Shown here: in pieces, positions 2,810-3,539 of the stretch
Numbering within the stretch: the stretch's first letter is position 1
How the letters are laid out: each line of letters begins with the position of its first letter
IMG/VR virus record: IMGVR_UViG_2606217105_000010
Direction: 5' to 3' (one strand)
Origin: a virus
Lineage: Duplodnaviria > Heunggongvirae > Uroviricota > Caudoviricetes
Length of the DNA: 5,384 nt
Notes under the pieces: generated by a model
What the model saw: the letters and a program-made list of their open reading frames with translations, nothing else
Told to the model about the DNA's origin: nothing
Database searches by the model: none
Made by a program: the position numbers and the translations under genes

Positions 2810-2827
2810 ATTTTATAACCCAGAACG

Positions 2828-2851
2828 GGCGTCAGAAATGACGCCTTTTTT
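2828..2851 (+). terminator. Rho-independent terminator-like hairpin directly after the J stop codon
   Basis: Perfect 7-bp stem GGCGTCA (2828-2834) / TGACGCC (2839-2845) around a GAAA tetraloop, immediately followed by TTTTTT (2846-2851). Located 19 nt after the J stop. Confidence 0.7.
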
Positions 2852-2862
2852 ATTGCAGAAAA

Positions 2863-2868
2863 GCGAGA
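2863..2868 (+). promoter_or_regulatory. Shine-Dalgarno-like site for lom
   Basis: GAGAGG, 7 nt upstream of the lom ATG at 2876. Confidence 0.5.
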
Positions 2869-2875
2869 GGTAATT

Positions 2876-3475
2876 ATGCGTAAACTTTATGCCGCCATTT
2901 TGTCCGCAGCCATTTGTCTGGCCGTATCCGGTGCGCCTGCATGGGCGTCTGAACATCAGTCCACGCTGATCGCGGGGTATCTTCATGCCCGGACGAACGT
3001 TCCCGGCAGTGATGATCTGAACGGGATTAACGTGAAATACCGTTATGAGTTTACGGACACACTGGGGATGGTGACGTCATTCAGCTATGCAGGAGACAAG
3101 AATCGCCAGCTTACCCGTTACAGCGATACCCGCTGGCATGAAGATTCCGTTCGTAACCGCTGGTTCAGCGTAATGGCGGGGCCGTCTGTGCGCGTGAATG
3201 AATGGTTCAGCGCGTATGCGATGGCGGGTGTGGCTTACAGCCGTGTGTCGACTTTCTCCGGGGATTATCTCCGCGTAACTGACAACAAGGGGAAAACGCA
3301 CGATGTGCTGACCGGAAGTGATGACGGTCGCCACAGCAACACGTCTCTGGCGTGGGGGGCTGGCGTGCAGTTTAACCCGACCGAGTCCGTGGCCATTGAT
3401 GTCGCTTATGAAGGTTCCGGCAGTGGCGACTGGCGCACTGACGGTTTCATCGTGGGTGTCGGTTATAAGTTCTGA
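2876..3475 (+). CDS. lom: Outer membrane protein Lom (Ail/Lom/OmpX/PagC family 8-stranded beta-barrel), 199 aa
   Basis: ATG 2876 to TGA 3473-3475. N-terminal signal peptide [24 protein letters not shown] with an AxA cleavage motif before SEHQ. Alternating hydrophobic/aromatic beta-strand pattern and a C-terminal aromatic residue (...GVGYKF), typical of outer-membrane barrels. Sequence is recognisably lambda Lom and sits in the lambda position between J and stf. Confidence 0.92.
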
Positions 3476-3501
3476 TTAGCCAGGTAACACAGTGTTATGA
3501 C

Positions 3502-3528
3502 AGCCCGCCGGTTCAGGCGGGCTTTTTT
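3502..3528 (+). terminator. Rho-independent terminator after lom
   Basis: Perfect 8-bp GC-rich stem AGCCCGCC (3502-3509) / GGCGGGCT (3516-3523) with a 6-nt loop GGTTCA, followed by a T-tract ending at 3528. Located 27 nt after the lom stop. Confidence 0.8.
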
Positions 3529-3539
3529 GTGGGGTGAAT

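Follow-up and report, generated by a model that had tools for sequence, protein, structure and literature searches.

An optional lom block between a terminator-like hairpin after J and the side-tail-fibre gene of lambda-like Escherichia coli phages

Introduction

In phage lambda, lom (NC_001416, 18965-19585) lies between J and stf and encodes a protein of the Ail/Lom family. The gene has already been called a prophage-expressed moron (PMC3594210, PMC7067206), and lom and bor are both expressed in lambda lysogens (PMC7067206, PMC1151598). As expression of lambda lom under repression has been reported, some promoter is required there. In one array study of a lysogen, lom was not detected, and its promoter was described as little known (PMC2147009). 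Ribosome profiling, as cited in PMC12366544, indicates that lom expression climbs sharply late in infection, and overexpressed Lom blocks lambda-vir according to the same 2025 study (PMC12366544). The gene is dispensable for plaque formation (PMC10695390). A role of Lom in adhesion has been reported (Vica Pacheco 1997, via PMC3594210).

The morons of HK97 and HK022, such as HK97 gene 15, resemble lom in being extra non-structural genes of the tail operon that carry their own factor-independent terminator and whose neighbours are adjacent in relatives (Juhala et al. 2000, via PMC3594210). Ail/Lom proteins are also encoded by the short-tailed Stx phages 933W and phi24B. In phi24B, where lom is a different allele in a podovirus context, the gene is expressed in the lysogen and uncoupled from induction (PMC3342100), which shows that some lom genes have independent promoters. 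OmpX, Ail, PagC and Rck belong to the same eight-stranded beta-barrel family as Lom (PF06316, PF13505; PDB matches to OmpX and Ail at ~1e-18), but their genes stand alone on chromosomes or plasmids, each under a regulated promoter of its own, and are not part of a phage late operon.

Here we describe a lom locus on a DNA stretch of 5,384 nt (the window). A preliminary description had presented this lom as a classic moron, a single-gene cassette insulated between two intrinsic terminators. We compared the locus with lambda, with other lom alleles and with relatives in which lom is absent.

Results

The ORF listing of the window contained three genes on the + strand: the 3' part of J, a 199-codon ORF, and the 5' part of stf (Table 1). 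The J ORF matched the Pfam families Phage-tail_3, Ig_J, Ig_J_second, Phage_Tail_Tip and Ig_GpJ_C and was annotated as J in matching phage records, while the stf ORF matched phage_tail_N (E = 4.1e-72). The window spans the junction of J, lom and stf in a lambda-like phage or prophage of E. coli. It does not come from lambda itself; its best matches among phage records were Turner, PhiR70_1, 2H10 and many Stx1a and Stx2a phages, with 97-98% identity over positions 2600-3750. At least 80% of this interval was present in 3,880 of 5,426 complete E. coli genomes, at no more than 14 places per genome. When the coordinates were re-read, the spacers measured 66 nt between J and lom (2810-2875) and 64 nt between lom and stf (3476-3539), in full agreement with the lengths given earlier.

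Table 1. Features of the J-lom-stf junction (positions within the window)
Feature	Coordinates	Strand	Remarks
J, tail-tip gene, 3' part (3' 2.8 kb)	32..2809	+	ORF open at the left end of the window; stop TGA 2807-2809
Post-stop box TTTATAACCC	2812..2821	+	Columns mostly invariant or nearly so in 17 distinct spacers, lom-containing and lom-less
Hairpin 1 and T-run, resident J terminator (tJ-like)	2827..2854	+	Stems 2827-2834/2839-2846, loop GAAA, then TTTTTTATT
Optional lom block, ~674 bp	2855..3528	+	Absent from lom-less J-stf junctions; right edge ambiguous by one T
lom leader, 21 nt	2855..2875	+	Shine-Dalgarno GAGAGG 2865-2870, read from the sequence
lom CDS, 199 aa and stop	2876..3475	+	ATG 2876, TGA 3473-3475; full-length Pfam Ail_Lom match
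Segment near-identical to lambda and other lom alleles	3348..3539	+	Last ~130 nt of lom, 3' UTR and terminator; pairwise alignment
Hairpin 2 and T-run, intrinsic-terminator-like site of lom	3502..3528	+	Stems 3502-3509/3516-3523, T6 3523-3528
stf RBS (GTGGGGTGAAT) and 5' part (1.8 kb) of side-tail-fibre gene stf	3529..5384	+	ATG 3540; open at the right end of the window

The product of the central ORF aligned with Pfam PF06316 (Ail_Lom) over residues 1-199 of both protein and profile, at 396.5 bits against a cut-off of 23 (E = 2.8e-119). Among PDB sequences, it matched lambda Lom (9wso, 4.3e-49), OmpX (1qj8 and 2m06, ~2e-18) and Ail (3qra, 1.6e-17). The full-length profile match and the OmpX and Ail matches agree with the earlier assignment to the Ail/Lom/OmpX/PagC family, and on this evidence Lom is an eight-stranded outer-membrane beta-barrel of the Ail/Lom family. 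It is 46% identical to lambda Lom and slightly shorter (199 versus 206 aa). The translation begins with a likely Sec signal peptide (2876-2947) and ends in VGVGYKF, which has an aromatic residue as in outer-membrane barrels. A solved structure of Lom is available in the PDB (9wso); considered as a possible complex of Lom with lambda J, this entry contained no matching J chain. In prophages, lom was often decayed, by IS5 insertion, by a frameshift or by an 83-bp internal deletion. No tight linkage was seen between lom and the receptor-binding part of J, as one lom allele (95-98% identity) occurred with J C-termini that were 53-95% identical to that of the window.

We then examined the two hairpins that flank lom. 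Hairpin 1 starts 18-19 nt past the J stop, and 24 nt lie between its T-run and the lom ATG, which confirms the positions reported for the upstream stem-loop. Its stem consists of seven Watson-Crick pairs and a terminal G-U pair, with T6 at 2846-2851. The folding energy was -14.6 kcal/mol (z = -5.4), and none of 200 shuffled sequences folded as well. In an alignment of 17 distinct spacers with and without lom, 99.3% of the cells were paired, compared with 35-61% when the partners were slid by one to three columns. Three pairs had changed on both sides (G-C/A-U, C-G/U-A and A-U/U-A), one U-G intermediate was present, and the covariation score was reached by none of 500 shuffles. The T-run was invariant across the aligned variants. 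This pattern of compensatory change indicates that hairpin 1 is under structural selection.

Hairpin 1 looks as a functional intrinsic terminator ending J would look, and it exists independently of lom. The same hairpin with the same flanks was found directly before stf in the lom-less phages L103, L104 and L118-L121. Because hairpin 1, its T-run and the post-stop box all occur in phages that lack lom, we regard the hairpin as the resident terminator of J, located outside the lom cassette. The earlier view of the upstream hairpin as a cassette part that insulates lom therefore does not hold, as in those phages the identical elements face stf.

Hairpin 2 begins 27 nt past the lom stop and comprises eight pairs, seven of them G-C, with a 6-nt loop. 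Its folding energy was -18.2 kcal/mol (z = -3.6; 1 of 200 shuffles as good), so that it is the stronger of the two, as had been proposed together with its distance from lom. The free-energy calculation that had been suggested for this locus thus showed that both hairpins fold far better than shuffles. A loose terminator scan of the whole window returned seven matches, a number not above chance (5.8 +/- 2.2 in shuffles). Its two top matches were hairpin 2 (rank 1) and hairpin 1 (rank 2), the only coding-strand matches within the spacers, which make up 2.4% of the window. In 20 kb of the lambda late region, the lom terminator was likewise the top coding-strand match. Both hairpins have a GC-rich stem, a short loop and six T directly after the stem, as is characteristic of intrinsic terminators, and both T-runs were invariant.

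Hairpin 2 lies inside the optional block. Compared with lambda, the only differences were a G-C to G-U change, loop changes and two extra pairs in lambda, and covariation was weak. Other lom alleles (L099, 933W) had unrelated hairpin-plus-T-run sequences after the lom stop. As each allele has its own hairpin and T-run before the RBS of the next gene, the recurring unit is the gene plus its own terminator. A search of the window against Rfam at a permissive threshold gave no known RNA family and only sub-threshold chance matches. Among these, Trp_leader (21 bits, below threshold) merely picked up hairpin 2, and isrG (22 bits against a cut-off of 100) fell in the Ala/Ser repeats of stf. The small RNA 24B_1, encoded downstream of lom in phi24B, was also considered and set aside, since its authors report that it is absent from the analogous region of lambda; its context is of the 933W type.

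Junctions without lom were collected mainly by distant blastn of positions 3250-3940 against phage records, which was the source of the informative cases. In earlier comparative sets (stf N-terminus; IMG/VR, species genomes), near-identical loci predominated, together with lambda contamination, which was seen in assemblies of unrelated taxa. The blastn alignments fell into three classes. Some ran from the start of the query and represented the same lom allele. Others began only at 3348 or 3383 and corresponded to other lom alleles, including that of lambda, in which the final ~100-130 nt of lom as well as the terminator and stf are shared with the window; a mosaic joint is thus located inside lom, at ~3348 relative to lambda and at ~3383 relative to another allele. 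In the third class, the alignment began only at ~3523, the sole annotation under the match was a tail-fibre gene, and J and stf were adjacent. The existence of these lom-less relatives bears out the description of lom as a single-gene insert between J and stf.

In the lom-less phages mEp460_4F5, Lambda_ev245 and PhiR63_1, J and stf are 58-60 nt apart and hairpin 1 lies within the spacer. This spacer reads TGA-ATTTTATAACCCAGATAC-GGGCGCC-AGAAA-TGGCGCC-TTTTTTATT-TGTGGAGTGAAT-ATG, that is, hairpin 1 followed by the stf RBS. The same arrangement was found in L103, L104 and L118, which derive from Escherichia ruysiae, Escherichia sp. and a metagenome genome. With joints marked by slashes, lom-less spacers read ...GGCGCCTTTTTTATT/TGTGGAGTGAATATG, and the window reads ...GACGCCTTTTTTATT/GCAG...GGGCTTTTT/TGTGGGGTGAATATG. 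A lom-containing locus (L036) and a lom-less one (L119) were identical from the J stop through TTTTTTATT, which confines the lom-specific DNA to approximately 2855-3528. Both junctions of the block lie inside T-runs.

Within the block, the order is the GCAGAAAAGCGAGAGGTAATT leader, lom, a 27-nt 3' UTR, hairpin 2 and the T-run, after which GTGG(G/A)GTGAATATG resumes. Of the 15 distinct J-lom spacers, 13 had the identical leader and L116 a near-identical one, with clear differences only in lambda and L102. Both forms of the junction were common: in IMG/VR, 86 contigs contained the exact lom-less junction, and at least 120 contained the lom-bearing left junction. In another locus (L075), an element of the IS200/IS605 type ends at the same T-run/stf-RBS junction, and one contig (L243) carries a tandem duplication of the receptor-binding end of J, hairpin 1 and lom.

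We also searched for a promoter that could serve lom. A scan of the + strand of the whole window with a promoter tool gave zero sigma-70-like matches. A relaxed scan near lom, in the window and in lambda, yielded only 7-8/12 matches at background frequency, and no conserved site of at least 9/12 was found in the 500 nt upstream among 122 distinct upstream sequences of this allele family. These three scans reproduce the earlier result by eye, in which no convincing -35/-10 pair had been recognized. The hexamer TATAAC at 2814-2819 was rejected as a -10 element of lom: it has no -35 partner and no TG extension, it is equally conserved in lom-less phages, and a transcript started there would open with the entire terminator hairpin. 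The lom-specific DNA ahead of the ATG measures just 21 nt and includes the Shine-Dalgarno sequence, which leaves no space for a promoter in the block.

With a GC content of 0.561, lom was similar in base composition to its neighbours J (0.560) and stf (0.571). The RSCU correlation between lom and J was 0.75, within the range of 0.54-0.90 obtained for J segments against the rest of J. The comparison of GC and codon usage that had been suggested for lom against J and stf thus revealed no foreign signature. Taken with the promoter scans, this means that the locus has the extra gene and own terminator of a moron but, at the level of sequence, neither its promoter nor its distinct composition. Consensus scans are blind to weak, activator-dependent or alternative-sigma promoters; the sequence gives no support for a lom-specific promoter, and a weak or factor-dependent one may be compatible with it.

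Among the known systems, the locus is of the lambda type. From ~130 nt before the end of lom, through the 3' UTR and the terminator hairpin, to the start of stf, the window and lambda are nearly identical. In both, a hairpin and T-run lie downstream of the J stop, and a GAGAGGT-containing leader of ~21-23 nt precedes the lom ATG. The two Lom proteins are only 46% identical, and the mosaic joint lies inside the gene. In lambda, the hairpin after J has a different sequence of 5-6 pairs, its spacer folds no better than shuffles (z = -0.5), and it is much weaker than that of the window. Strong insulation upstream of lom is therefore not universal. The lambda T-run region also contains -10-like hexamers, TATTAT/TATAAA, which are absent from the allele in the window.

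In contrast to the HK97 and HK022 morons, lom of the window has no recognizable promoter or room for one, its GC content and codon usage do not set it apart from its neighbours, and the terminator upstream of it is that of the recipient phage. In 933W and phi24B, an Ail/Lom protein is likewise encoded downstream of tail-fibre genes and followed by a hairpin and T-run (ACCCGC...GCGGGTTTTTTATT). However, the context is unrelated, without J or stf, and a 90-nt AT-rich upstream spacer could hold a promoter. At the DNA level, the similarity of these lom genes to that of the window is limited to ~100 nt at 75%.

Discussion

In the window, lom belongs to an optional block without room for a promoter, placed between the J terminator and the stf RBS, and it is most likely expressed mainly from the Q-antiterminated late transcript. 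The ancestral or alternative junction consists of J, the terminator hairpin with TTTTTTATT and the stf RBS, and the ~674-bp block sits exactly between the last two. By analogy with lambda biology, Q-modified polymerase from pR' would read through both hairpins during lytic growth. Under these conditions, lom would be transcribed and translated along with the other late-operon genes, and its product would enter the outer membrane of the cell in which it is made. Without the Q modification, polymerase arriving from within J would stop at hairpin 1, and polymerase that had started before lom would stop at hairpin 2. Stops at these two sites would make lom a monocistronic unit and keep stf silent in the prophage. 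The insulation of lom between two terminators, as first proposed, is accurate as a description of the layout, but the upstream terminator belongs to J and the promoter implied by such a unit is without sequence evidence.

Prophage expression has been reported for the allele of lambda, which is another allele than that of the window (PMC1151598, PMC7067206). Any such expression here might arise from a weak non-consensus promoter in the 3' end of J or the hairpin 1 region, or perhaps from leak-through at hairpin 1. Lom is an accessory surface protein, for which the activities reported in the literature on the lambda allele are adhesion and, when overexpressed, a block of lambda infection. As for its description as a lysogenic-conversion gene, the reports of lambda lom in lysogens are in favour, but the lambda-vir block and the late rise in expression (PMC12366544) suggest that it may not be purely that.

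A fuller reading of lom as a classic moron would give it a constitutive sigma-70 promoter of its own, in the last codons of J or over hairpin 1, with expression chiefly in the repressed prophage and a main role in lysogenic conversion through adhesion and serum resistance. Reports of lom transcription in lambda lysogens and its listing among morons (PMC1151598, PMC7067206, PMC3594210) agree with this, as do the own terminator, the adjacency of the neighbours elsewhere and the conserved TATAAC just past the J stop. However, that hexamer has the defects described above and is no less conserved where lom is missing, no promoter-like site is conserved in the 122 upstream variants, lom-specific DNA starts only 21 nt before the ATG, composition does not set lom apart, and one lysogen array study saw no lom signal (PMC2147009). 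We therefore consider this reading rather unlikely. Of the features of a moron, the extra gene, its own terminator and the adjacency of its neighbours in other phages are present, while the promoter, at the level of sequence, and the compositional difference, which is usual in morons but does not strictly define them, are not.

The hairpins could also act mainly on the late mRNA, as protectors of RNA 3' ends or barriers to processing that set the amounts of J, Lom and Stf, and not primarily as transcription stops. Q-modified polymerase ignores terminators, so in lytic growth the hairpins would act only at the RNA level; the covariation of hairpin 1 is kept with or without lom, and in lambda the highly expressed E gene is followed by another intergenic hairpin (7163-7180), which lacks a clean T-run. 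Against this stand the invariant six T directly after both hairpins, which are needed for intrinsic termination but not for protection from exonucleases. The two roles are not mutually exclusive, and we judge RNA protection improbable as the main one.

A different history is conceivable, in which lom is ancestral at this site and decaying, and junctions without it arose secondarily, through deletion by slippage or by illegitimate recombination between the two hairpin/T-run contexts. The T-runs at both junctions offer microhomology, prophage copies of lom are often inactivated in the ways listed above, and all lom alleles share the layout of the left junction, even the 46%-identical one of lambda, which suggests long residence. 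However, lom-less junctions occur with at least three hairpin 1 variants and several J alleles, so that the same deletion would have had to recur or the flanks to recombine freely, and lom homologues in the unrelated podovirus context of 933W indicate that the gene moves. We give this history only a minority chance; moreover, insertion and deletion would leave the same present-day architecture and expression logic. In a further reading, lom at J-lom-stf junctions might be a promoter-less passenger of the late operon rather than a lysogenic-conversion moron sufficient in itself, inserted between the J terminator and the stf RBS by T-run-mediated illegitimate recombination and with essentially all meaningful expression due to Q read-through. 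Its selected role would then be to coat the dying cell and its debris against non-productive re-adsorption of progeny, and virulence effects in lysogens would be a leaky by-product. We offer this proposal as a speculation that is more doubtful than not.

The lambda-type lom locus is a textbook accessory gene that is usually called a moron and is already known, and the present analysis reveals no new kind of element. The refinement is incremental: it consists of the exact boundaries of the cassette, the promoter-less nature of the insert, and naturally occurring forms of the junction that have or lack lom between identical flanks. Lom is a standard example of the phage genes credited with a benefit to the lysogen, and about 3,900 of the 5,426 complete E. 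coli genomes carry versions of the J-lom-stf junction. What is gained is a clearer anatomy of this locus, in which the hairpin upstream of lom is assigned to the phage itself, as the terminator of J, and the optional block extends from T-run to T-run, bringing a terminator without a promoter.

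Boundaries within and beside lom

We compared window positions 3348-3539 with the corresponding stretch of lambda (approximately 1150-1350 of comparison locus L001) and found that the joint between the two lom alleles falls within the gene. Near-identity across lom alleles extended over the final ~130 nt of lom, through the 3' UTR and terminator, and into the start of stf; elsewhere, protein identity between those alleles was ~46%. The conserved C-terminal strand of Lom may act as a recombination anchor.

A different kind of boundary was observed in one locus, L075, in which an ORF for an IS200/IS605-type transposase (motif HIVFAPKYRR) and a terminal hairpin lie within 2371-3000, upstream of stf (3001). 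The transposase ORF and the terminal hairpin of this element end between ...CCTCCGGCTATGCCGGAGGATATTTATT and GTGGGGGGAATATG. This point is the junction of the T-run with the stf RBS, which is also the right end of the optional lom block. Insertions may occur preferentially at this junction.

Inactivated, duplicated, and lambda-identical lom loci

Prophage copies of lom were often inactivated by an IS5 split, a frameshift, or an internal deletion. In two loci (L082 and L109), the gene is split by an IS5 (InsH) element, with lom fragments lying ~1.4 kb upstream of stf, and lomR of Rac is an IS5-split lom of the same kind. One further locus (L026) carries a frameshift within a G-run, and three (L027, L049, and L063) share a deletion of ~83 bp inside lom.

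A repeated arrangement was found in L243, where positions 763-7500 contain a full J, the terminator-like hairpin that follows the J stop (hairpin 1), lom, a second J end comprising the last 241 codons, hairpin 1 again, and a second, diverged lom. Beyond these come an N-terminal piece of stf, an IS21-like ORF, and finally stf. Either the receptor-binding end of J and lom were duplicated in tandem as one unit, or this order is an assembly artefact.

J-lom-stf loci from assemblies of other taxa (L084-L098, L100, L101, L105, L108, L110, L113, L115, and L117) encoded a lom 100% identical to that of lambda wherever the fragment included the gene. The assemblies were labelled Pseudomonas, Shewanella, Kitasatospora, Oceanobacillus, Leeuwenhoekiella, Bradyrhizobium, and others. 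Several of the loci lie on ~48.5-kb contigs, and the coverage stated in many of the contig names was mostly ~1, with a maximum of ~10. These loci look like lambda DNA contaminating public genome assemblies.

Lom structure

A solved structure is deposited in the PDB as 'Outer membrane protein lom' (9wso; 206 aa, the lambda length). We considered and rejected 9wso as a complex with lambda J, as its partners are not lambda J. No paper describing the entry was found in the literature searched.

Signals within stf and J

The Ala/Ser/Thr-rich stf repeats (window 3900-4950) yield spurious long ORFs of up to 335 aa in several frames on both strands. A match to the isrG sRNA model in this region scored 22 bits, well below the cut-off of 100, and was dismissed as a chance match.

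The window's only promoter-like match of at least 9/12 lies antisense within J. Lambda J has the same hexamers at a similar place, likewise with a minus-strand hairpin nearby. This recurrence may point to an antisense start conserved in both, or may simply follow from conservation of the coding sequence.

Minus-strand features in J of the window and of lambda
Feature	Sequence	Position	Strand	Remarks
Promoter-like site	window	1788..1761	-	TTCACA-16-AATAAT, 10/12; inside J, antisense
Hairpin near the site	window	1939..1918	-	
Counterpart of the site	lambda J	17882..17855	-	same hexamers
Counterpart of the hairpin	lambda J	18033..18012	-
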